Under the pieces are notes generated by a model. The model was given only the letters and a program-made list of their open reading frames with translations, had not been told where the DNA came from and ran no database searches. This document shows positions 7,424 through 43,701 of a stretch of 43,701 nucleotides of DNA, one piece after another (the stretch's first letter is position 1; each line of letters opens with the position of its first letter). A program made the position numbers and the translations under genes. The DNA comes from a virus (lineage: Duplodnaviria; Heunggongvirae; Uroviricota; Caudoviricetes), in the IMG/VR virus record IMGVR_UViG_2571042636_000008, positions 1 through 43,701 of that record. One strand, 5' to 3'.

Positions 7424-8119
7424 TTAAAGTAAAACTGAATACCAGAAAACCCTTCCTATGATTTCAACATCTTGCTCCATTGCCTCTTCGTCCTCTCGGT
7501 TGAAGCTGCGTATCACAAGAATTCCACCTGGCTTACGGTATAACTGCTTTATCCGCTTTAGCTTTTCATCTCCGGCACCTGGTTGCGCGATAGCATATAG
7601 TTTTCCATCAATGATCCGTTTGTTATTGGTGTCTACTGCAACCGTTGTTCCATCTGGAATAACAGGCTCCATACTGTCTCCAGTGGCTGGGAAGCAGATA
7701 ACTCCAGAACCATCGCTGTTAGCGCCAACTCTTCGTAAAGTTGCTTTGGAGAACCTCAACTTAAAGCCATTGTGATCATCGCTTTGAATGCGACCATCCC
7801 CGCAGGCAAATTCGATATCTTTCAAAAAAGGCACTTCTACTTCGCCCTCACTTAGTGGGGTATTTTTGTCCCATGAATCGACTTGGGACCATTCTTTTTC
7901 GGGAGGAATTTCACTGGTCATTTCATGCTCCCCAGTTAAGAGCCAGCTAACTGAGCACTTTAAAGCTGCTGCCAACTCCGGCAAGTATCTTGGGCGCTTA
8001 GTCCTTCCGTCTTCGAGTTGCTGTATGGCCTGCTGAGAGGTTTTAGCTAGTGAAGCCAGCTCCGCTTGCGTCAATGATAGCTCCGCACGCCTAAGTTTTA
8101 CTCTGTCCGCAATATTCAT
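7424..8119 (-). CDS. cI: cI-type repressor (N-terminal HTH + C-terminal S24 LexA-like autopeptidase domain)
   Basis: HTH region [33 protein letters not shown]; S24 motifs GDSM and KLKRIK; start at ATG 8119 with GAGGTGGA RBS; the track's longer N-terminal extension rejected. Confidence 0.9.
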
Positions 8120-8159
8120 ATCCACCTCATAAACCGATCCCTCATGCTTACAAGAAATA

Positions 8160-8217
8160 AGGTATTTGACAAACAAGTTTGTTTGACAATAAAATACAAA
8201 TAACCTTGTAAAGGAGG
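8160..8217. promoter_or_regulatory. OR/PR region: operators and rightward promoter for cro
   Basis: Direct TTTGACAA repeats; -35 TTGACA (8166-8171) with 18-bp spacer to TAAAAT (8190-8195); operator-like TACAAATAACCTTGTA; AAGGAGG RBS before cro. Confidence 0.6.
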
Positions 8218-8221
8218 CATC

Positions 8222-8443
8222 ATGGAAACTCTTTCTGACCGCGTTAAAAAACGCCGCAATGAACTTAATTTGACCCAAGCCGGTCTTGCTGAGCTTTCTG
8301 GAACCAAACAACAGACTATTCAGCAAGTTGAATCCGGATTAACAAAACGCCCACGCAAGCTCATTGAGCTGGCGACTGCCCTTCAGTGCGAGCCACGCTG
8401 GCTTCTTTTTGGAGAGCAAGGGAATAAAACCAATGCCGCCTAA
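8222..8443 (+). CDS. cro: Cro-like HTH (XRE-family) regulator
   Basis: 73 aa; [26 protein letters not shown]; divergent from cI across the operator region. Confidence 0.8.
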
Positions 8444-8482
8444 CCGGCGGCCTTTCAAACAACACCAGAGGAAGTATCACAA

Positions 8483-8704
8483 ATGGAGAGTTCAACGACA
8501 CGCAACAAAGTGGAGGCTCGCAGGATAGAAAGCTGGTTACACAGCCAGATAGCTGAACTGGGAACCACGAATATCGCCAAAGTGGCCGGAGTGAATAAGT
8601 CGACGGTGAGTCGCTGGCGGGAAAGTCTGCTGCCGAACATGTCGCTGCTGCTGGCCATCCTGATTTCTAACAGGCCGGGAGAGAAAGGTGATTTTGAAGC
8701 ATGA
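8483..8704 (+). CDS. cII: CII-like transcriptional activator
   Basis: 73 aa; matches lambda CII core from memory (RIESWL...AELGTTNIAKVAGVNKSTVSRWR...LLLAIL); cII position after cro. Confidence 0.75.
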   Translation: MESSTTRNKVEARRIESWLHSQIAELGTTNIAKVAGVNKSTVSRWRESLLPNMSLLLAILISNRPGEKGDFEA

Positions 8705-35059: not shown

Positions 35060-35398
35060 GTGAAAATCTTCACCATCGTTTTTATCGCATTCGCATCCTT
35101 TGGGGCTACCGCCGGTGGCTTCACATCATATTGTGGACCTTACACTTTAGTAGCAAGGGAAGGTGATGTAAGCATTATCAATGGAGAGCGAGTCACCTCT
35201 CAGAAAATAAAATTATTGGGGGAGGACGGCATCAAGATAAACATGGGGATGATGCCTGCCAAAGACGGCAACAACTACGGCTTTCAGTACATCCACCGTC
35301 CTGGTAGTGAATCTCGCTTTCTGAACGTCCAGCTTCTGCAAAACAGCATGGATGCGCCGAAGATTATCGGATCCTTCCCCTGCGTCAAGGTGAAGTGA
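35060..35398 (+). CDS. Moron: small secreted (periplasmic) protein
   Basis: GTG start with GGGGA RBS; signal-peptide-like N-terminus MKIFTIVFIAFASFGATAGG; two Cys; AT-rich relative to flanking baseplate genes. Confidence 0.55.
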   Translation: MKIFTIVFIAFASFGATAGGFTSYCGPYTLVAREGDVSIINGERVTSQKIKLLGEDGIKINMGMMPAKDGNNYGFQYIHRPGSESRFLNVQLLQNSMDAPKIIGSFPCVKVK

Positions 35399-35400
35399 TT

Positions 35401-35847
35401 ATGGAATTTTTCGCAATTATCCTCTTCTTTTTGGCAATAGCCATTGTTACTAGATGGAATAACCATAAGAAAGCTAAAAAGCGGAAAGAAGAAGATAACT
35501 TTATCCATAGTATTGATTATTCTTATCGTCGTCCTGAGGTTAAATCTAAGCCTAAAAATGGTCGTAGAAGAAGCAAGGAGGAAATGCTTGCTGATGGAAT
35601 CGCATATCAAAAATTGATGGGTGATGATTTTAGAAAGTCAGCAAAAGCTACGCAAATCCAGGCGGAAAGAGTCGGATCTAAGAAATATATTTGGCGTGGT
35701 TCTGATTGCTGCCCAAATTGCGATAAGCAGAATGGGAAAACATTCTCTTGGGCAAGACCTCCAAAAACAGGTCACCCAGGAGAAGGAAAATTATGTCCTA
35801 ACGGTTACTGTCGCTGTTGGGCTGAGGTGATAATTCCGAAACCGTAA
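35401..35847 (+). CDS. Moron: membrane-anchored protein with MuF-C-terminal-like Cys/His motif
   Basis: N-terminal TM helix EFFAIILFFLAIAIV; basic linker; C-terminus YIWRGSDCCPNCD...KTFSWARPPKTGHPGEGKLCPNGYCRCWAEVIIP parallels the MuF C-terminus at 22904..23686; strongly AT-rich; terminator follows. Confidence 0.55.
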   Translation: MEFFAIILFFLAIAIVTRWNNHKKAKKRKEEDNFIHSIDYSYRRPEVKSKPKNGRRRSKEEMLADGIAYQKLMGDDFRKSAKATQIQAERVGSKKYIWRGSDCCPNCDKQNGKTFSWARPPKTGHPGEGKLCPNGYCRCWAEVIIPKP

Positions 35848-35868
35848 GGCATTACAAAATTCTATAAA

Positions 35869-35891
35869 AAGCCCACCCATGTGGGTTTTTT
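35869..35891 (+). terminator. Rho-independent terminator after the moron cassette
   Basis: CCCAC-ccat-GTGGG followed by TTTTTT. Confidence 0.55.
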
Positions 35892-35909
35892 ATTGCCTGG
35901 AGTAAGGTA

Positions 35910-36563
35910 ATGGCAATATCCGATAAAACCCGCAGTGGGGCGCTTGCTGAGGTTCTGGCGTCAGAGAGAAGGACGCTCAACGAACAACTTCGCGTTGCAA
36001 TGCCCGGCATCATCCAGTCTTTTGATCCTGACGCAGTGACCGCCGTGGTGCAGCCGGCGATCCGCTACATCGAGCGCGATAACGACGGCAACAAATTAAC
36101 GAATGATTATCCACTGCTGGTAGATGTTCCTGTCGTTTTCCCTCGCGGCGGAGGCTGCACACTGACTTTTCCTGTTAAGGCTGGTGATGAATGCCTTGTT
36201 ATCTTTGCGGACCGCTGTATTGATTTCTGGTGGCAGAGTGGGGGTATTCAGGAGCCGGTAGACGAGCGCATGCATGATTTATCCGATGCCTTCTGCATTG
36301 TCGGCCCGCAGTCGCAGGCGAAGAAAATCGGCGGTATCAGCACCAGTGCGGTAGAGCTGCGCAGTGATGACGGGGAAACAAAGTTGAGCCTTAATCCTGC
36401 CAGTGGAGCTATCAACGGCACGGCGCCGGGAGGTTTTAACCTGAACGGGCTTAAAATTCTCTCGGACGGCCGCCTGCAACTGGTGGATGGCTCAATCGTT
36501 GATAAGCATACGCATGGTGGCGTTGAGCCTGGTGGCAGCAGTACAGCACCACTCGGAGGATGA
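35910..36563 (+). CDS. Baseplate central spike protein (gpV/Gp138-like)
   Basis: 217 aa, Gly-rich C-terminus with HTHGG; GGAGTAAGG RBS. Confidence 0.6.
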   Translation: MAISDKTRSGALAEVLASERRTLNEQLRVAMPGIIQSFDPDAVTAVVQPAIRYIERDNDGNKLTNDYPLLVDVPVVFPRGGGCTLTFPVKAGDECLVIFADRCIDFWWQSGGIQEPVDERMHDLSDAFCIVGPQSQAKKIGGISTSAVELRSDDGETKLSLNPASGAINGTAPGGFNLNGLKILSDGRLQLVDGSIVDKHTHGGVEPGGSSTAPLGG

Positions 36564-36564
36564 T

Positions 36565-36918
36565 ATGCGATACCGTCGAGAAGATGACGATGGGGATTAC
36601 ACCTTCGGTCAGGGCGATGATACCTGGCTGGTTAACTCACCCGAGGCTGTAGCGCAGGCCATTAAAACGCGCTTCCTGCTCTGGTACGGTCAGTGGTTTC
36701 TGGACACCACAGAAGGTACGCCATGGATTCAGTCCGTTCTGGGTAAGCAAAAACCGGATACCTACAACCTCGCTATCCGTAAGCGGATCCTCGAAACGCA
36801 GGGGGTTAGCTCAATCACTGCATTTAACACCACCGTTGACGGTACCACGCGCCGTGTAACGTTCACAGCAACGGTGGAAACCATCTACGGGACAACCACA
36901 GTAACTTCGGAGGCGTAA
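36565..36918 (+). CDS. Baseplate protein (gpW/gp25-like)
   Basis: Start ATG 36565 (MRYRREDDDGDYTFGQG...), about 117 aa, between spike and J-like genes. Confidence 0.5.
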   Translation: MRYRREDDDGDYTFGQGDDTWLVNSPEAVAQAIKTRFLLWYGQWFLDTTEGTPWIQSVLGKQKPDTYNLAIRKRILETQGVSSITAFNTTVDGTTRRVTFTATVETIYGTTTVTSEA

Positions 36919-38114
36919 TGGCTCTGGACCTCGACACACTCGGCTTATCGGCAACGGTAACCGCTGAGGGGATAAGTGCGCCTGATTATCAGACGATACT
37001 CAGCACCCTGATTAGCTATTTTCAGCAGATTTATGGCAGTGATGCCTATCTCGACCCGGACAGCAAAGACGGCCAGATGGTCGCTCTGGTGGCTCTGGCC
37101 ATTCATGATGCCAACAACACGGCTATTTCTGTTTACCGGTCATTTTCTCCGTCGACGGCGCTGGACGATGCATTAACCAGTAACGTCAAAATTAACGGCA
37201 TCGCTCGCCGGGCTGCGACAAATTCTACGGTCGATGAGCTGATCGAAGGTGAGGCCGGAACGTTAATCACAAACGGCTCTGTGAAAGATGCCAACGGCAT
37301 CATCTGGAATCTTCCTGCTCAGGTGACAATTGGTATTGATGGGACGGTTATTGCTACAGCGACGTGTTCTGTTGCTGGCGCTGTGGCGGCCCCTGCCGGG
37401 TCAGTCAATAAGATAAACACCCCGACACGTGGCTGGGTATCAGTAACTAACCCTCAAGCGGCTACCGTTGGCGTTGCTGCCGAAACAAATGCTGAATTGC
37501 GTGTCCGGCAATCACAGAGCGTTGCTTTACCATCTCTGACGCCGTTTGAGGCGGTAGATGGTGCGATAGCAAATATCAGCGGCGTAACCCGTCACAAGCT
37601 GTATGAGAACGATACAGATACCACTGATGCAAATGGCCTGCCGCCGCACTCAATCGCCGCCATTGTAGAAGGTGGTGATGCGACGGTCATTGCAAACAGC
37701 ATTCGTGGTGTGAAAGGGCAGGGCGTAACACCCTACGGTAGTACGGTGATTGTTGTGCCTGATAAGTACGGAAACCCTCACCCGGTAGGTTTTTCAAGGC
37801 CGGTCGATGTACCCATTTACGTCAAAATCACTATCGAACCCCTTACGGGCTACACATCCCAGGTCGGCGAAGAGATAAAGGCGGCTGTATCTGCCTACAT
37901 TAACTCACTGGCAATCGGCGCCAGCGTTCTTCTCAGTCGCGTTTACTCACCGGCTAACCTTGGTGTTGTCAGTGGTGGTAATGCCAGGTATTACGACATT
38001 ACCGAGTTGCTGATCGGGACGTCCGCCGGTGGCGTAGCCGCGGCAAACGTGGATATTGCCTTTGACCAGTCAGCATCCTGCGCCGTCAGCAATATTAATC
38101 TGGTGGTCTCATGA
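36918..38114 (+). CDS. Baseplate J-like protein
   Basis: 398-aa ORF, size and position typical of gpJ/gp6-like wedge proteins. Confidence 0.65.
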   Translation: MALDLDTLGLSATVTAEGISAPDYQTILSTLISYFQQIYGSDAYLDPDSKDGQMVALVALAIHDANNTAISVYRSFSPSTALDDALTSNVKINGIARRAATNSTVDELIEGEAGTLITNGSVKDANGIIWNLPAQVTIGIDGTVIATATCSVAGAVAAPAGSVNKINTPTRGWVSVTNPQAATVGVAAETNAELRVRQSQSVALPSLTPFEAVDGAIANISGVTRHKLYENDTDTTDANGLPPHSIAAIVEGGDATVIANSIRGVKGQGVTPYGSTVIVVPDKYGNPHPVGFSRPVDVPIYVKITIEPLTGYTSQVGEEIKAAVSAYINSLAIGASVLLSRVYSPANLGVVSGGNARYYDITELLIGTSAGGVAAANVDIAFDQSASCAVSNINLVVS

Positions 38115-38884
38115 GCAGATACACTGACCGCATAACAAACTACCACGCCGGTAAACCAAAGTTCTTTGCCCACGTCGACCTGTCCACCAGGCCACTGAGT
38201 GATGTTTCCGATGCCATGTCACGGCTAATACCCGATTTTGATATTGATACCGCCATTGGCGTGCAGCTTGACGTTGTGGGCGAATGGGTTGGTCGTTCCC
38301 GTCGCGTGGCTACACCGGTAACCGGGATTTATTTTTCGTGGGACACCGAGCGGGTTGGCTGGGACCAGGGGATTTGGCAGGGCCCATATGACCCAAACGA
38401 TGGGTTTATCGATCTCAGTGATGAAATATATCGGCTAATGCTGAAGGTGAAAGTGGCGATAAACAACTGGGATGGTCAGAACGATTCGCTTCCTTCAATT
38501 CTTGATGCCGCCCTTGCCGGGTCCGGGATCCGCATGACTATTGTCGACAATCAGGATATGTCGATTTCCATCTGGATACTCGGTGACCCATCGGTATCCC
38601 TAAGTGAAATAGACCGGTTAATTCTGGATAGCGCCGTCAATAAAGGCCCCTTTATCGCATTACCGGCAGGTTACGTACCATCGCGCTATGACATTAACCC
38701 GATTGACCAGGTTAACAGCGAGCTATGGTGGGCGATTCAAAACGGTTATATGACGGTTAAGGCCGCCGGAGTTCGTGTCCGTGAAATAGAGACCGTCAGT
38801 AATGGTTATCAGTTTTTTGGCTTCGATATCGAAAATGACTATATCGCTGGTTTCGACCGCGGGTCATGGGGAGAGAGATTTTAA
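38111..38884 (+). CDS. Baseplate/tail-fibre-associated protein (DUF2612-like)
   Basis: 257-aa ORF, ATGA overlap, precedes fibre gene. Confidence 0.5.
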   Translation: MSRYTDRITNYHAGKPKFFAHVDLSTRPLSDVSDAMSRLIPDFDIDTAIGVQLDVVGEWVGRSRRVATPVTGIYFSWDTERVGWDQGIWQGPYDPNDGFIDLSDEIYRLMLKVKVAINNWDGQNDSLPSILDAALAGSGIRMTIVDNQDMSISIWILGDPSVSLSEIDRLILDSAVNKGPFIALPAGYVPSRYDINPIDQVNSELWWAIQNGYMTVKAAGVRVREIETVSNGYQFFGFDIENDYIAGFDRGSWGERF

Positions 38885-39765
38885 TGGCGACTAACGATTT
38901 TAAGCCCTTCGCTACAGGTAGCGGGGCAAACGTATTATCACAAGCTGATTATGATGCACTGTCGGCCAGAACAACTGGCTTTTTAAGTGGCAAAGCCTCT
39001 TCGGCACAGGTCAACAAAGCTTTAAGGCAGGCATCAACTATTGCGGCGGTTGTGGCGCAGTTTATTTCTGATAACAGCGGCGATGACACCCTTGATAATG
39101 GTAATTTGCCTACCTTGCTGGCCAGTCTCGAAAGCGCCCTTCTCAAGTCCTCCCCTGGGCGGTTACAGAATATCGTTAGCTTTACCGCAAATGGGACCTA
39201 CACCCCATCTCCAGGAACCAAACATGTAAAAGTTATTGTTACTGGCGGTGGTGGTGGCGGGGGTGGTTGTCAGGGAACTTCCGGAGCTGAATCAATTTCA
39301 GGTGGTGGTGGCGGTGCTGGCGGTACGGCCATTGGTTATTTTGCCGTTACTGAATCCAGCTACGCAGTCACTGTAGGTGCTGGTGGTTCTGCTGGCGTTG
39401 GTGCTGTGCAGGGTGGAACAGGCGGAACCTCAATCATTAACGGCATTAGCGGATTGGGCGGAGATGGTGGTCAGAAATCAGGGATCACTACGCTGGCTGG
39501 TGGGAAAGGCGGTGTTTCTATTGGTGGCTCGGTTAACCTTCCCGGAGGTTACGGTACTGATGGGCAAAATGGCTCTCTGATTATCCCCGGCAATGGCGGA
39601 TCATCATATTGGGGCGGCGGTGGTCGTGGGGGCGCACGCGGGGGCGTGGCAGGGGATTGTTATGGTGCCGGTGGTGGTGGTGCATATGATGCTGCCATGT
39701 CTGGTAACTCCTACAATGGCGGACAGGGGAAAGCAGGGATTGTATATATTGAGGAATATTCTTAA
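38884..39765 (+). CDS. Glycine-rich tail fibre protein
   Basis: Conserved fibre-like N-terminus MATNDFKPFATGSGANVLSQADYDAL...; C-terminal Gly-rich repeats (GGGGGGG, GGxGG). Confidence 0.65.
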   Translation: MATNDFKPFATGSGANVLSQADYDALSARTTGFLSGKASSAQVNKALRQASTIAAVVAQFISDNSGDDTLDNGNLPTLLASLESALLKSSPGRLQNIVSFTANGTYTPSPGTKHVKVIVTGGGGGGGGCQGTSGAESISGGGGGAGGTAIGYFAVTESSYAVTVGAGGSAGVGAVQGGTGGTSIINGISGLGGDGGQKSGITTLAGGKGGVSIGGSVNLPGGYGTDGQNGSLIIPGNGGSSYWGGGGRGGARGGVAGDCYGAGGGGAYDAAMSGNSYNGGQGKAGIVYIEEYS

Positions 39766-39934
39766 TGGTAAGCAAATATGCAGTCCTGAAAGATGGCGTG
39801 GTAGAAAACATTATTGTTGCTGATGATAATTACTCTCCTGATGATTTCGAAGTCGTAAAATATAGTGACGAAACATTTTGCCAGCCAGGCATGTTGTACA
39901 ATAAAGAGGATGGTTTATTTTATGATGATAAATA
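39764..39934 (+). CDS. Small acidic ORF (56 aa) coupled to the fibre gene, possible fibre assembly factor
   Basis: ATG overlaps previous stop (TAATG); MVSKYAVLKDGVVENIIVADDNYSPDDFEVVKYSDETFCQPGMLYNKEDGLFYDDK; AT-rich; terminator follows. Confidence 0.35.
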
Positions 39935-39983
39935 ATCATCAAGAATAAATAACATTATCTACATATCTATACATTACCAATCA

Positions 39984-40006
39984 ACCGGCTTATGCCGGTT
40001 TTTTAT
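39984..40006 (+). terminator. Rho-independent terminator
   Basis: ACCGGC-ttat-GCCGGT followed by TTTTTTAT. Confidence 0.6.
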
Positions 40007-40016
40007 TGGGGCGACC

Positions 40017-43000
40017 ATGAGTGAATACGATACCGGCAATCCTGTGCCGTCTGCATCAATGCCTGATGCATGGGATAATATGCAGTCTATTGACAAGTTC
40101 GTTAATAGCAGCGATGAAACCATTACCACACGCACGGGCGAACAGTTAGATACTTTGCATGGCGTTAATGTTAAGGCGGACAACCAGCTAACGCAGCAGC
40201 AAGCAGACTTTGAAACCTCGCAAGAAGAAAGGGATGCTGTAGTTGAGGAAACCAGGCAGAACCTGATCCCTCTCAGCCGGCAGTATATGACACTGGCCGC
40301 GGCACAGGCAGATATTGCTAATATCCCCGAGGGGAGCACTACGTATTACCGAAGCCCTGACGATAGCGCTCTTGCGATAGAGGCAATCAACAACGCCGGT
40401 ACGCTGACCGCAACCGGGAGAAAAATGCCAGCGTACTCTTCTTTGCGCAGAGGCAACATTTTATTCGACGCATTTAATGAATATTCCTCAAGCCTTTTAA
40501 CATTCGCTAACTGGGATTGGTATAAAGGCGCTACGCCAACATTTTCTACTACTGATGTTAATTTGCCGCTTCCAACACCTGTTATTCAAGCTTCTGGTGT
40601 AACATCGTTTGATAAATATTACGATGTGTCAAAATTACAGGTAAAACCAGGAGACACTTTAGCTTTCTCTGTTTTGGTATGGTTCGAGAACGCTGGAGGC
40701 AAGTTACAGATTTATTGGCTTGATTCAGCAGGAGTAACCATCACTACAGGGGAGGCCTCTCCACTGGTTGCTGGTATATCCTCTCCGGTTGTGGTCATTG
40801 CTGTGCCATCTGGCGCATCATCCATACGAATTCGGGTGCAAAACACTGTGTCAGGGGCGTTCAAAATCGGTGTCTATGCCGCAGCTATTGGTGATGTTAC
40901 TCCTGAATTCACAAGGTCTTTCCCTTCAAAAGCGTACCAGGAGGCATTGGGTACCCCTGATAACCTCGTGTACGACCCTTTTGGCGAGATGCTTTCCGTT
41001 CGTCCTAAGCAAGGACTTCCTGCAGGCGTGGTTGACGCCATGAGTTACGCAGGAACATTGATTCAGAACAGCGCAAATTCACCATGGGGTAAGACCGGGA
41101 TCCAAAACACGTCAGGAGTTGGTGCTGATCGTATTATTTCTCTCAGTTCGATGGGGGTTAAGCCGGGAGACACAATCACTGTCCGTCTGGCTGCATGGTT
41201 CGCGTCAACGGGTGGCACGTTTCAGGTTTTCTGTCGTAATGCATCCGGAGTACTTTCTTCGGCAACTATTGCCGCATCAGCATCCGGCTTTAATGATGGA
41301 AGTACCACGCTGACAATACCAGCATCAACGACATACCTTACGCTTCGCGCATCAGGGGCTATGGTCAAGGAGCTGGTTGCCATAGGTGTAGCTTTCGGAC
41401 GATCTCGCCCTGAGTTTATTTACGGTAGCCTTCCAGCAGAGTATTCAGGATACCAGCGCCAGCAGATTAACCTGTGGCCTGATCCCTGGTATCGCCGCTA
41501 CGAGTGCGGGGAAACGTGTATTGATGGTTGGGGTCCTGCTCAAGTAGCAGGGGTTTCACTACCAGCATATGTTGCGGATTATTCTGGCAGCCCGTTTCTT
41601 AGGAAAAAATCTCTGATTATCCCAGTAGGTGGTGGTCAGACGGATATTAACATTTCAGCAAAGCGGCTTGGACTGCGTGCTGGAGATTCGCTGACAGTAG
41701 CGCTGGGTGTGGTATCGTCTCAGGCAATCAACGTGGCAGCATATTTCCGGACGGCTAGCGGGACTGTTATTAGTGACAGTTCGTCTCAGTTGTTCCAGTT
41801 CCCAACCCAGCAATATCAGACTCTGGTTCGCACAATAGCTATCACCCAGACTATTGTTGATACGGCTGGATATCTGCAAATCCGCCTTATGAATGGGCAG
41901 ACTGTTGGCGCTGCAGGTGTTTATGTTGTTGCCAGGGGGCTCTTTGTTGGGAATGGCTCTCCTGTACTGAGTGATGATACGTACCGACAGGATGTCGATT
42001 ACACAACTTCCAGAGCATTCACGTTAAATCAGGATTCACTCAGAGAGACACATAAGCGCCTGATGAACAGGCGGCTTTCTCAGTCAGCAACACTGGTAAC
42101 AGCGCACATTGGCGATAGCTGGACTCACCTGTGGAACCGATGGAGCGGAATTTTTGCCGGAAAAATGCAGGCTGACTATGGCAGTGCAGGTATCGGCTAT
42201 ATCGGATTTGGCTATCCGTCTGAGGCGGGTTTCGGGCAGTATAACGGCAATATACTTGGTCAGATAACTTTGACCAAAACAGGAACATGGACTCCGACAT
42301 ATGCGGCAGCACAGAGCGCAGATATTTGTAGCGTCTCGTCTTCTGATACCACCGCTACTTTCAGGGCGAACGGTATACCGGCAAATGCATCGTCAGTCCG
42401 CCTTTTTGCTAAACCTCAGGGGAGTGTTAAATACAGCACAGATGGTGGAGTTAACTGGACAACTATCGACCTGAGCACGTTCACTGACCTTGCGGTTGTC
42501 AGCCTCACGGTACCGGCAACAGCTTTCAATATCTGGTTCAGTCCGGTATCAGGAACCGTTGAACTGTACGGTCTGGATGTGCAGACCGCGACAGATGGTG
42601 TCCGGTCTCACAAGCTGGGTGCGACGGGGAGTTCTGCTCAACAATGGGCGGCGCAGGTTACCAGCGCAACATGGAAAGCAGCATTCACCGCGCTGGCCCC
42701 CAATCTGGTGACAATTCTGCATGGGACCAATGACCAGACATCATCCCGTGATCCATCCGCGTTTGCTGCCGATATTCAGACGATAATCACAGCAGTTCGC
42801 ACTGCATGCCCGTTGGCTGATGTTCTGGTGATCATGCCATGTGAAAACCAGAGGAATAACAATGTGGCAATGGCGGCGTATGCGTCTGTTGTACGGGATG
42901 TTTGTGCGCTAAACAGGGTGGCTTATCACAATCTCCAGATTGACTACGGAGACAAGCCATCTGATTACGCATCGACATCTCCACGCAACTGGTTCAATGC

Positions 43001-43073
43001 TGATGGAATCCATCCTGACCCTGCAACTGGAGGTGGGCTGCCGATCGTTTCTGCTGTTTTGAAGTTAATGTAA
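40017..43073 (+). CDS. Tail fibre/tailspike with three internal repeat modules and C-terminal SGNH/GDSL-type hydrolase (esterase) domain
   Basis: 1018 aa; three divergent ~115-aa repeats each containing (V/L)KPGD(T/S)...WF...; SGNH block I HIGDSWTH and block V DGIHPD near C-terminus. Confidence 0.75.
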   Translation: MSEYDTGNPVPSASMPDAWDNMQSIDKFVNSSDETITTRTGEQLDTLHGVNVKADNQLTQQQADFETSQEERDAVVEETRQNLIPLSRQYMTLAAAQADIANIPEGSTTYYRSPDDSALAIEAINNAGTLTATGRKMPAYSSLRRGNILFDAFNEYSSSLLTFANWDWYKGATPTFSTTDVNLPLPTPVIQASGVTSFDKYYDVSKLQVKPGDTLAFSVLVWFENAGGKLQIYWLDSAGVTITTGEASPLVAGISSPVVVIAVPSGASSIRIRVQNTVSGAFKIGVYAAAIGDVTPEFTRSFPSKAYQEALGTPDNLVYDPFGEMLSVRPKQGLPAGVVDAMSYAGTLIQNSANSPWGKTGIQNTSGVGADRIISLSSMGVKPGDTITVRLAAWFASTGGTFQVFCRNASGVLSSATIAASASGFNDGSTTLTIPASTTYLTLRASGAMVKELVAIGVAFGRSRPEFIYGSLPAEYSGYQRQQINLWPDPWYRRYECGETCIDGWGPAQVAGVSLPAYVADYSGSPFLRKKSLIIPVGGGQTDINISAKRLGLRAGDSLTVALGVVSSQAINVAAYFRTASGTVISDSSSQLFQFPTQQYQTLVRTIAITQTIVDTAGYLQIRLMNGQTVGAAGVYVVARGLFVGNGSPVLSDDTYRQDVDYTTSRAFTLNQDSLRETHKRLMNRRLSQSATLVTAHIGDSWTHLWNRWSGIFAGKMQADYGSAGIGYIGFGYPSEAGFGQYNGNILGQITLTKTGTWTPTYAAAQSADICSVSSSDTTATFRANGIPANASSVRLFAKPQGSVKYSTDGGVNWTTIDLSTFTDLAVVSLTVPATAFNIWFSPVSGTVELYGLDVQTATDGVRSHKLGATGSSAQQWAAQVTSATWKAAFTALAPNLVTILHGTNDQTSSRDPSAFAADIQTIITAVRTACPLADVLVIMPCENQRNNNVAMAAYASVVRDVCALNRVAYHNLQIDYGDKPSDYASTSPRNWFNADGIHPDPATGGGLPIVSAVLKLM

Positions 43074-43105
43074 AACTCCTACATTGATCTTCCCTCACAA
43101 CAATA

Positions 43106-43125
43106 ATACTGTATGTTTGTACAGT
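43106..43125. promoter_or_regulatory. LexA (SOS) box
   Basis: TACTGTATGTTTGTACAGTA matches CTGT-N8-ACAG consensus in 17 of 20 positions and lies within a 12-bp perfect inverted repeat, 20 bp upstream of the next ATG. Confidence 0.75.
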
Positions 43126-43144
43126 ATTATTGGGAGGGCAGATC

Positions 43145-43384
43145 ATGCTTCGACAGTCAGACATCGCAGCGGCGTTCCGCGAGTCGGTATTGCGCAGTTC
43201 CAAGGGGTTCCAGTACCTTCACACCCGCGACTTCGTTACCGCGCTGCGCCGGCGCGGCATCCATTTTTCCGAGGTGGAGGCGAACTCCTGGATCGCACGC
43301 GAGCAAACGTATTTCGTCGACAAAACGGCAGAGCATAGTGAAAACTGCCTGTGGATGATGGCCAACATGGGGAGGATTCTGTAA
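43145..43384 (+). CDS. Small SOS-regulated protein of unknown function
   Basis: 79 aa; GGGAGGG RBS; directly downstream of the LexA box; coupled (TAATG) to the UmuD'-like gene. Confidence 0.55.
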   Translation: MLRQSDIAAAFRESVLRSSKGFQYLHTRDFVTALRRRGIHFSEVEANSWIAREQTYFVDKTAEHSENCLWMMANMGRIL

Positions 43385-43701
43385 TGGGCTTTCCATCACC
43401 GGCGACGGACTACACGGAACAGCGATTAACGGTTAACTCGATCTGCAGTGTTGGGCCAAATACGCGCCTCTTCGAGCGTTCAGGCGGTTACGTTGTGCTG
43501 GATATCTCCCTGAAGCCATCACAAGGTAGTCAGGTTCTGATCCAGCACGGCGGCGGGACGGAGCTTGCCACGCTGAGAGGAAAGTCGCTGATTACCGAAG
43601 ATGGCGAAGCGATCGAGGGCGAGGCCTTGGACGATGTTAATGTCATCGGCGTCGTGACGTTTACTATCTGCGATGTGCGCCAGGACAATGCGGTTGTTTA
43701 G
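43384..43701 (+). CDS. UmuD'-like (S24-fold) protein lacking N-terminal arm and canonical catalytic Ser
   Basis: Begins MGFPSPATDYTEQRLTVN, matching the UmuD' N-terminus created by UmuD self-cleavage; C-terminal VIGVV like UmuD FGVV; SGDSM position reads SGGYV; stop codon is the last 3 nt of the window. Confidence 0.6.
   Translation: MGFPSPATDYTEQRLTVNSICSVGPNTRLFERSGGYVVLDISLKPSQGSQVLIQHGGGTELATLRGKSLITEDGEAIEGEALDDVNVIGVVTFTICDVRQDNAVV

Follow-up and report, generated by a model that had tools for sequence, protein, structure and literature searches.

At the right-hand end of the 43,701-nt stretch of tailed-phage DNA analysed here (IMG/VR record IMGVR_UViG_2571042636_000008, Caudoviricetes; hereafter the window) lies a pair of coupled genes, A and B. 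We read the pair, with a probability of about 0.6, as an SOS-regulated accessory operon whose second product, the UmuD'-like protein B, acts on the DNA polymerase V (Pol V) system of the host. Pol V (UmuD'2C) drives SOS mutagenesis, feeding the evolution of antibiotic resistance, and the RecA-dependent cleavage of UmuD is a safety catch that delays it. Judged from sequence comparison, SOS-timed modulation of host Pol V or of the activated RecA filament is the most likely function of the pair.

The intergenic region after the gene (40017-43073) for a 1018-aa SGNH-esterase tail fibre carried the promoter and operator elements together with the start of gene A (Table 1). The predicted LexA box, TACTGTATGTTTGTACAGTA, shared 17 of its 20 bases with the E. 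coli LexA consensus, TACTGTATATATATACAGTA; both half-sites (CTGT and ACAG) were perfect, and the mismatches all fell in the weakly conserved centre. The left half of the box doubles as a -10-like TACTGT (43107-43112), and TTGATC or TTGAC was kept at an equal distance from it in related loci; a consensus promoter scan scored the operon promoter 7/12 and did not call it. The stop codon of A overlapped the start codon of B as TAATG, and the window terminates on the stop codon of B. A preliminary description, made from the letters of the window, had reported a near-consensus SOS box just upstream of a coupled two-gene unit, and this agreed with what was found here. One other CTGT-N8-ACAG was present in the window, at 41764; its position inside the tail-fibre open reading frame (ORF), and a number within chance expectation, led to its rejection as a second operator. 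A terminator-like call within gene A (window 43239-43257), consisting of a GC-rich hairpin and a T-run (CCGCGCTGCGCCGGCGCGG CATCCATTTT), could be a chance occurrence or an internal attenuator.

Conservation was assessed in 27 loci from different enterobacterial species, with B identities of 36-58%, and in 80 viral contigs retrieved by B and 80 retrieved by A, 79 of the latter being new. With a LexA-type box defined by at least 7/8 core positions and at least 15/20 positions overall, 86 distinct regions upstream of A homologues were scored and 81 of them had such a box, in every case 34-43 nt ahead of the start codon; the rate in random 100-nt windows was 0.9%, so that the operator is kept far beyond chance. 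The consensus of the family boxes was exactly TACTGTATATATATACAGTA, and the genera bearing them were Klebsiella, Escherichia, Enterobacter, Leclercia, Citrobacter, Erwinia and Pantoea. Many relatives carried the operator TACTGTATATAAAAACAGT[AG], and an identical operator precedes genuine umuD in Klebsiella and Phytobacter loci. The TAATG-type overlap was likewise kept among related loci, and ratios of nonsynonymous to synonymous substitution (dN/dS) of 0.10-0.24 for gene A and about 0.11-0.15 for gene B indicated that both genes are under purifying selection. Single 90%-identity clusters contained thousands of member sequences, 146 of 5426 complete E. coli genomes (about 3%) had a match, and a large proportion of clinical Klebsiella pneumoniae had prophages carrying the operon. 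As far as such comparisons can tell, the operon and its SOS operator are real.

Two departures from the common operator were also observed. The closest relatives of the window, 99.9% identical to it (L001, 6108-6127; L030, same position), carry TACTGTATGTTTGTGCAGTA, in which the right half-site ACAG has become GCAG; this change may mean partial derepression in those strains, the palindrome of the window itself being intact. Additionally, seven loci (L031, L032, L064, L065, L088, L091 and L100) were without a LexA box in the ~120 nt upstream of A, and in the box-less minority of close relatives a GC-rich GCCAGACACCCGAGGCAGGA... replaces it. Such operons may be read through from upstream genes.

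Table 1. Coordinates of the A-B operon and its control elements in the window
Feature	Position	Strand	Remarks
-35-like hexamer TTGATC	43084..43089	+	Read from sequence; 17 nt upstream of TACTGT
Predicted LexA (SOS) box TACTGTATGTTTGTACAGTA	43107..43126	+	Sequence match
Shine-Dalgarno GGGAGGG of gene A	43132..43138	+	Ends 6 nt before the ATG at 43145
Gene A	43145..43384	+	79 aa, basic, isoelectric point (pI) 9.1; PHROG 3893
Shine-Dalgarno GGGAGGA of gene B	43370..43376	+	Within the end of gene A; GGAGG 8 nt before the ATG at 43384
Gene B	43384..43701	+	105 aa, acidic, pI 4.4; UmuD'-like; PHROG 3469

Protein B was assigned to its PHROG family ('UmuD-like') with an E-value of 2e-46. It starts M-GFPSPATDY, which aligned to G25-FPSPAADY of UmuD with G2 of B opposite G25, so the statement in the preliminary description that B begins at the residue where UmuD is cleaved was correct. 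A PDB search matched the arm of B (residues 2-44) to UmuD and UmuD' (E 1e-4), and hhalign, comparing a profile of 90 family members with UmuD, gave a probability of 98% over the whole length. The same hhalign comparison left an 11-residue gap in B, removing the SGDSMIDGGIS loop that carries the nucleophile Ser60, and a MAFFT alignment with HumD, N15 gp26 and two UmuDs showed the same gap in B, the deletion amounting to 11-12 residues. In an ungapped HMMER alignment Val37 stood opposite Ser60 and Tyr36 opposite Asp59; the tyrosine that had been seen in place of the catalytic serine was thus an artefact of aligning by hand without gaps. UmuD Lys97 falls on Ala62 or Leu64 of B, and no Ser or Lys was conserved at the dyad positions in 36 diverse members of the B family. 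These alignments indicate that B is without the Ser-Lys catalytic dyad.

An in-frame N-terminal extension of B was not found either, the upstream open stretch being usually no longer than 17 codons and unconserved, and B has no N-terminal segment ending in a Cys/Ala-Gly self-cleavage site. An ordinary UmuD with an upstream extension was therefore rejected: the few open codons upstream are part of gene A, and the ATG has a strong ribosome-binding site before it. The earlier picture of a pre-truncated, non-cleavable UmuD'-like protein accordingly held, with a deleted loop in place of a substituted residue, and the binding to RecA filaments or Pol V that it suggested for B is plausible. An AlphaFold model of B (predicted local distance difference test score, pLDDT, 80.9) found its best PDB matches by Foldseek in UmuD' (1AY9, 1UMU, 1I4V), UmuD-RecA (8GMT) and LexA C-terminal domains, with template modelling (TM) scores of 0.57-0.63, a probability of 1.0 and E-values of only 5e-3 to 2e-2; on this model, B is predicted to have the LexA/UmuD-type beta-barrel fold. 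Within the B family the arm residues M1, F3, S5, P6, A7 and D9 were invariant, the GFPSPA arm was present in 233 of 240 proteins, and the C-terminal strand was conserved. A near-invariant acidic stretch, ITEDGEAIEGEAL, occupies the place where UmuD has LIPMNSAYSPITI.

The phage proteins most like B place it in a known lineage. HumD, N15 gp26 and the B family share, in the MAFFT alignment, the MGFPSPA start and an acidic C-terminal D-D-x-P-V-[ILM] that is absent from UmuD; this tail was found in most B-family members, the copy in the window ending QDNAVV without the proline. The GenBank record of P1 humD annotates a LexA site 20 nt upstream and a product complementing UmuD', a function that we take from that annotation and from the title of the original paper. 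In N15, gp26 follows the tail-fibre gene 25, and a perfect CTGT-N8-ACAG lies 17 nt ahead of it. In phage HK140, gp27 is a homologue of A (79 aa) and precedes gp28, a HumD-type protein of 129 aa, behind a LexA box common to a divergent dinI, and phage mEp390 (L110) has the same layout with a B-type protein (the 'UmuD-like' gp26). Given the common arm, the C-terminal tail (weaker in the window copy), the genomic position and the A homologue that accompanies a HumD-type protein in HK140, B is the loop-deleted end of the phage HumD lineage.

Across this lineage the active site forms a series: UmuD has both Ser and Lys, HumD is pre-truncated and still has Ser and Lys, gp26 of N15 and gp28 of HK140 have Thr for Ser, and B has no loop. 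On the aligned sequences, the protease active site seems to decay stepwise once self-cleavage is no longer needed. The A homologue of mEp390 is unannotated (79 aa, L110 2262-2501) and has its LexA box in common with the divergent dinI; the annotated gp25, which overlaps it on the opposite strand, is probably spurious. In a Citrobacter phage-plasmid (NZ_CP114569.1; L199, 3950-4634), B is present without A, has the LexA box TACTGTATATAAAACCAGTA and precedes a gene for a phd-like antitoxin, an order that mirrors humD-phd-doc of P1.

A hint of a connection between the B family and Pol V came from outside phages. In Buttiauxella, umuD-umuC is directly preceded by an arm-less relative of B that has a LexA box to itself, and in Kosakonia and Phytobacter such a relative lies 23 nt downstream of umuC without an operator of its own; the identity of UmuC in these loci was confirmed by the Pfam families IMS, IMS_C and DUF4113. 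As umuDC is a single-copy operon, the placement of an arm-less B beside it in 3 of the 27 independent genomic loci is not chance; it is the strongest hint available that the B family works with Pol V, and suggests an accessory role in Pol V beyond phages. The arm-less relatives are located at L021 231-539, L022 1077-1364, L023 3669-3956 and L025 5756-6276. In a further Phytobacter locus, an A homologue is followed by an arm-less B.

Protein A matched its PHROG family, of unknown function, with an E-value of 1e-37, and no match was found in Pfam, NCBIfam or PADLOC. The preliminary description had recognised no family for it, which stands as far as these three collections and any known function are concerned, and fails only in that A is a member of PHROG 3893. 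An exhaustive phmmer search of 1.84 billion representative proteins returned only 65 small relatives, all of the same family and, where the source names an organism, from enterobacterial genera. A belongs to a tiny orphan family that occurs almost only in front of UmuD'-like genes. The AlphaFold model of A (pLDDT 89.9) contains H4-14, E23-26, H27-36, H43-53, E57-59 and E69-72, and this order, H-E-H-H-E-E, is the winged-helix topology H1-b1-H2-H3-b2-b3. Foldseek matches in the PDB were mostly winged-helix proteins (ORC, MarR, PadR, FoxO, Fur, SarA, STIV F93), and in a viral structure library the sole significant match was a member of the A family itself. A is thus best described, from its model, as a basic winged-helix-like protein, its basic pI being the sole hint of DNA binding.

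The two proteins carry opposite charges (median pI 9.7 for A and 4.4 for B), and B directly followed A in 77 of the 79 loci retrieved by A. This adjacency, combined with the occurrence of B alone in some phages, points to A as an accessory partner of UmuD'-like genes. A DinI/ImpC identity for A was rejected, as there was no PF06183 match at E <= 1 and the predicted fold differs; no DinI structure was among the top PDB matches of the model. Apparent A-B fusion proteins (the 178-aa P0290 and a 159-aa ORF of L026) were frameshift artefacts. Two A homologues, P0171 and P0131 (105 and 124 aa), are annotated as 'recombinase/invertase', an identity that was rejected as well, these being chimeric ORFs whose 3' ends are joined to remnants of serine invertases (resolvase catalytic or HTH_7 parts). 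In both loci B has apparently been replaced or deleted through rearrangement with a tail-fibre invertase.

The position of the pair in its prophage was established with a contig of E. coli GCA_964037255.1 (L196), which is 100% identical to window 35384-43701 and extends further. After B, ~265 bp are followed by a host isochorismatase-family gene, aspS, nudB, yebC and ruvCAB, and an integrase at 1-1260 of the window marks the opposite prophage end; B is therefore the last gene of the prophage, at the right end where the preliminary description had put it. The UmuC-like gene that had been thought possible further downstream is absent from this continuation of the window's own prophage, where host genes follow, and a downstream umuC was ruled out in every prophage context examined. 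The pair is not part of a host umuDC or imp operon. In phage RothC, the 348-aa gene that follows the pair was considered as a UmuC and found to encode a glycine-rich, tail-fibre-like protein.

Comparison of window 40017-43701 with L001 (3627-6702) showed that the cassette of tail-fibre (SGNH/GDSL-esterase) gene, A and B is 99.9% identical in two unrelated prophages. The prophage of the window is of myovirus type (baseplate J, sheath initiator) and adjoins aspS/ruvCAB, and the cassette of L001 ends a lambda-like prophage (gpJ, Lom) at tRNA-Pro/yejM, where tail-fibre remnants, genes for DUF2971 and DUF4236 proteins and a pseudogene of DinI type come after it, with no umuC. The cassette has been exchanged recently between phages of unrelated type. 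Elsewhere, in other genera, the pair lies behind genes for tail fibres, tail spikes or O-antigen modification, next to an integrase or a host junction, and it behaves as a mobile accessory cassette. In a PADLOC scan the pair had no anti-phage defence match. The immunity region of the window (7427-8704) comprised a CI-like repressor (7427-8128, minus strand), a divergent Cro-like helix-turn-helix (HTH) gene (8222-8443) and a CII-like ORF (8483-8704); the repressor consisted of HTH_3 and Peptidase_S24 (E 1e-14) with GDSM and Lys, and the region as a whole is a standard RecA-cleavable switch.

In several Klebsiella provirus contigs (L096, 6852-9509; L062, 2803 onward; L040, 6852-8251), an integrase fragment lies ~0.5 kb downstream of the pair. 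It is followed by a full umuD-umuC operon in L096 and L062, and in L040 by a second pair, A2-B2, which is divergent and has a LexA box to itself. The prophage junction of these contigs looks like a variable islet of SOS genes.

Altogether, these observations would fit a 'moron' carried by a temperate phage at its tail-fibre end. In an undamaged lysogen, LexA bound to the box overlapping the -10 element would silence the operon independently of phage CI; upon DNA damage, activation of RecA and cleavage of LexA would allow both genes to be transcribed and translated as a coupled pair. B would be born 'activated', starting at the glycine that UmuD exposes only after RecA-stimulated self-cleavage and retaining the arm GFPSPAxDYxExRL, the S24 beta-barrel and, in most members, the HumD-type acidic tail that appears degenerate in the window copy. 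Since B is without the catalytic loop and lysine, it would bypass the slow, RecA-dependent cleavage step by which the activation of Pol V is timed, and since it is pre-truncated and dyad-less, LexA-controlled transcription would be the sole evident regulatory step. We infer that B acts like P1 HumD on host Pol V, perhaps as a homodimer that joins UmuC or in a heterodimer with UmuD or UmuD', and that A, which has co-evolved in front of such UmuD'-like genes, partners the acidic B, by binding it stoichiometrically or as a subunit that targets nucleic acid. B may either promote or restrain translesion synthesis. A tentative and clearly less favoured version makes the pair a new kind of SOS modulator, and not a simple substitute for HumD, in which B is a dead UmuD' decoy whose conserved arm and invariant acidic motif would trap UmuD, UmuD' or UmuC of the host or occupy the groove of the RecA filament, with basic A targeting or regulating it.

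Several results weigh against an action on Pol V of the kind proposed. B missed the cut-offs of both specific NCBIfam models, scoring 42.3 bits (E 6e-11) against the 120 bits required for HumD (NF051876) and 29.6 bits against the 110 bits required for UmuD (PRK10276), and it had no Pfam match at E <= 1, Peptidase_S24 (PF00717) included, which HumD and gp26 do match. The loss of 11-12 residues and the presence of ITEDGEAIEGEAL suggest a changed interaction surface, so that UmuD'-like activity is not to be assumed. The operon carries no umuC, and any role in Pol V depends on umuC of the host. For A, the winged-helix assignment rests on non-significant Foldseek scores (E 0.15-1, TM 0.4-0.5), and some phages (L003, L013, L067, L199) have B without A, so that A is not essential to B. 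Literature searches with the pair, the accession numbers, the PHROG identifiers, mEp390 and HK140 returned no functional study of A or of the B-type subfamily.

Among the other explanations, the most probable is that uncleavable B, with or without A, sits in the groove of the activated RecA filament and competes there with LexA, UmuD and phage CI. As a filament blocker or SOS timer it would weaken or postpone both SOS mutagenesis and the induction of the prophage, much as has been proposed for prophage homologues of DinI acting on RecA; in mEp390 and HK140 the pair has a divergent dinI beside it. The fold of B is that of the UmuD/LexA C-terminal domain, with the UmuD-RecA structure among its best matches, and the RecA-cleavable CI of the window leaves B something to compete with. 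All known binders of the RecA groove present an acidic patch to K232, R243 and K245 of RecA, together with a hydrophobic pocket (PMC9926225), and B is very acidic with a near-invariant acidic motif; this motif, however, is not at the position of the acidic patch of UmuD. Moreover, the UmuD residues that contact RecA (Y52, F94, D91, E93 and, in the missing N-terminus, F18) are not clearly conserved in B, where the position opposite Y52 is variable and a Gly stands opposite D91, in a part of the alignment that is uncertain by 1-2 residues. A blocker would also leave the arm-less relatives in umuDC operons unexplained, and we consider it unlikely. The idea that the pair is a decaying remnant, with B a degenerating humD or umuD' relic and A a chance ORF, could draw on the lost catalytic loop, the lack of a Pfam match and the occasional frameshifted or chimeric copies (L026, L027, P0290, P0171), but it deserves next to no credence, given the dN/dS of 0.10-0.24 for both genes, the full length, operator, ribosome-binding site and overlap kept across genera at 36-58% identity, an invariant 13-residue motif in B and high-confidence predicted folds.

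Two further explanations look for a target in gene regulation, and both are improbable. Gifsy-type antirepressor genes typically lie near a prophage end, and A and/or B might be an SOS antirepressor that inactivates the repressor of its own or a co-resident prophage, like Tum of 186, GfoA/GfhA of Gifsy or AntC of N15. A has no known function, the modelled fold of B is that of repressor C-terminal domains, with which heterodimerisation is possible in principle, and small LexA-controlled genes outside the immunity region are a hallmark of Gifsy (PMC3121763). The repressor of the window is nevertheless intact and self-cleaving and needs no antirepressor; the 99.9% identical cassette in an unrelated lambda-like prophage, and a family spread across many immunity types, argue for a host target; and the UmuD'/HumD ancestry of B is clear. 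No antirepressor family came up in the PHROG, Pfam and NCBIfam scans, antirepressor reference sequences not having been compared directly, and the chance of this reading seems small. Smaller still is that of a split transcription factor, in which A would be the DNA-binding and B the dimerisation domain of a LexA-, CI- or UmuDAb-like regulator divided at the cleavage site, giving a non-covalent, uncleavable regulator formed only during SOS. A is basic with a winged-helix-like topology, B begins exactly after the cleavage site, the genes are coupled by the TAATG overlap, and the Acinetobacter repressor UmuDAb with its small co-repressor DdrR offers a precedent (PMC11332147, PMC7273328). Yet among the 1.84 billion representative proteins there was no A-B fusion, frameshift artefact aside, the N-terminal domain of LexA was not among the top structural matches of A, and the putative recognition helix carries an invariant A-N-x-W-I, hydrophobic or acidic rather than basic. 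Several phages also have B by itself, and in P1 and N15 no A accompanies the UmuD'-like gene.

If the decoy reading of the pair is true, the prophage could shift when, or how strongly, Pol V mutagenesis occurs in lysogens of Klebsiella and E. coli, and possibly its own induction too. The operon would place an uncleavable, ready-made UmuD'-type protein under LexA control alone. Should B activate UmuC of the host, mutation in lysogens exposed to DNA-damaging antibiotics would set in earlier and be more frequent; should it poison UmuD or UmuC or compete for activated RecA, lysogens would mutate less or induce the prophage later. Either outcome would be relevant to resistance evolution and to phage-antibiotic synergy. 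The pair is widespread in clinically important hosts and conceptually anticipated by HumD, and the analysis has brought to light its orphan partner A, with a confidently predicted fold.

Among the known systems, the pair of UmuDAb and DdrR in Acinetobacter resembles A-B in joining a UmuD-family protein and a small accessory protein in the DNA-damage response of a narrow bacterial group. UmuDAb is, however, a cleavable repressor with an N-terminal DNA-binding domain of its own, and the analogy is functional only; A itself showed no homology to any protein outside its small family, the listed members of which are all short. The plasmid operons impCAB and mucAB likewise have a small first gene, a UmuD-like gene after it and LexA control, with ImpA ~31% identical to B, but ImpA is full-length and cleavable and is followed by the umuC-like impB, whereas no such gene follows B; ImpC is DinI-like. 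With E. coli UmuD and UmuD', B has in common the fold, the N-terminal arm motif, the C-terminal strand and the type of LexA operator sequence. UmuD differs as a 139-aa precursor, co-transcribed with umuC, in which activated RecA stimulates self-cleavage by Ser60/Lys97 at Cys24-Gly25, while B is without the precursor segment, the dyad and a umuC partner gene.

Closer likenesses are found in phages. N15 gp26 and HK140 gp28 occupy the same slot as B after tail-fibre genes, near attP, integrase or partition genes, and are likewise pre-truncated with an upstream LexA box; at 128-129 aa they retain the loop with Thr for the catalytic Ser, in contrast to the loop-deleted B, and on their sequences look like an intermediate stage of active-site decay. 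Gp23 of phiKO2 is grouped with them solely by a similarity note in the HK140 record. HumD, found in P1 and also in P7, D6 and other P1-like phage-plasmids, is phage-encoded with a LexA box just upstream, starts MGFPSPA, needs no processing by RecA and is ~30-32% identical to B. It differs in its 129 aa, its active-site loop with Ser and Lys and its match to Pfam Peptidase_S24, B having 105 aa and neither of these; it is without the ITEDGEAIEGEAL motif and has no A-type gene in front, and its function is recorded as tested. The SOS-controlled UmuD' mimic of the preliminary description is therefore of a kind already known, since HumD, gp26 and gp28 are pre-truncated relatives of UmuD' behind LexA boxes. 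The operon adds two things to this lineage, a UmuD'-like protein from which the catalytic loop has gone entirely, and its partner A.

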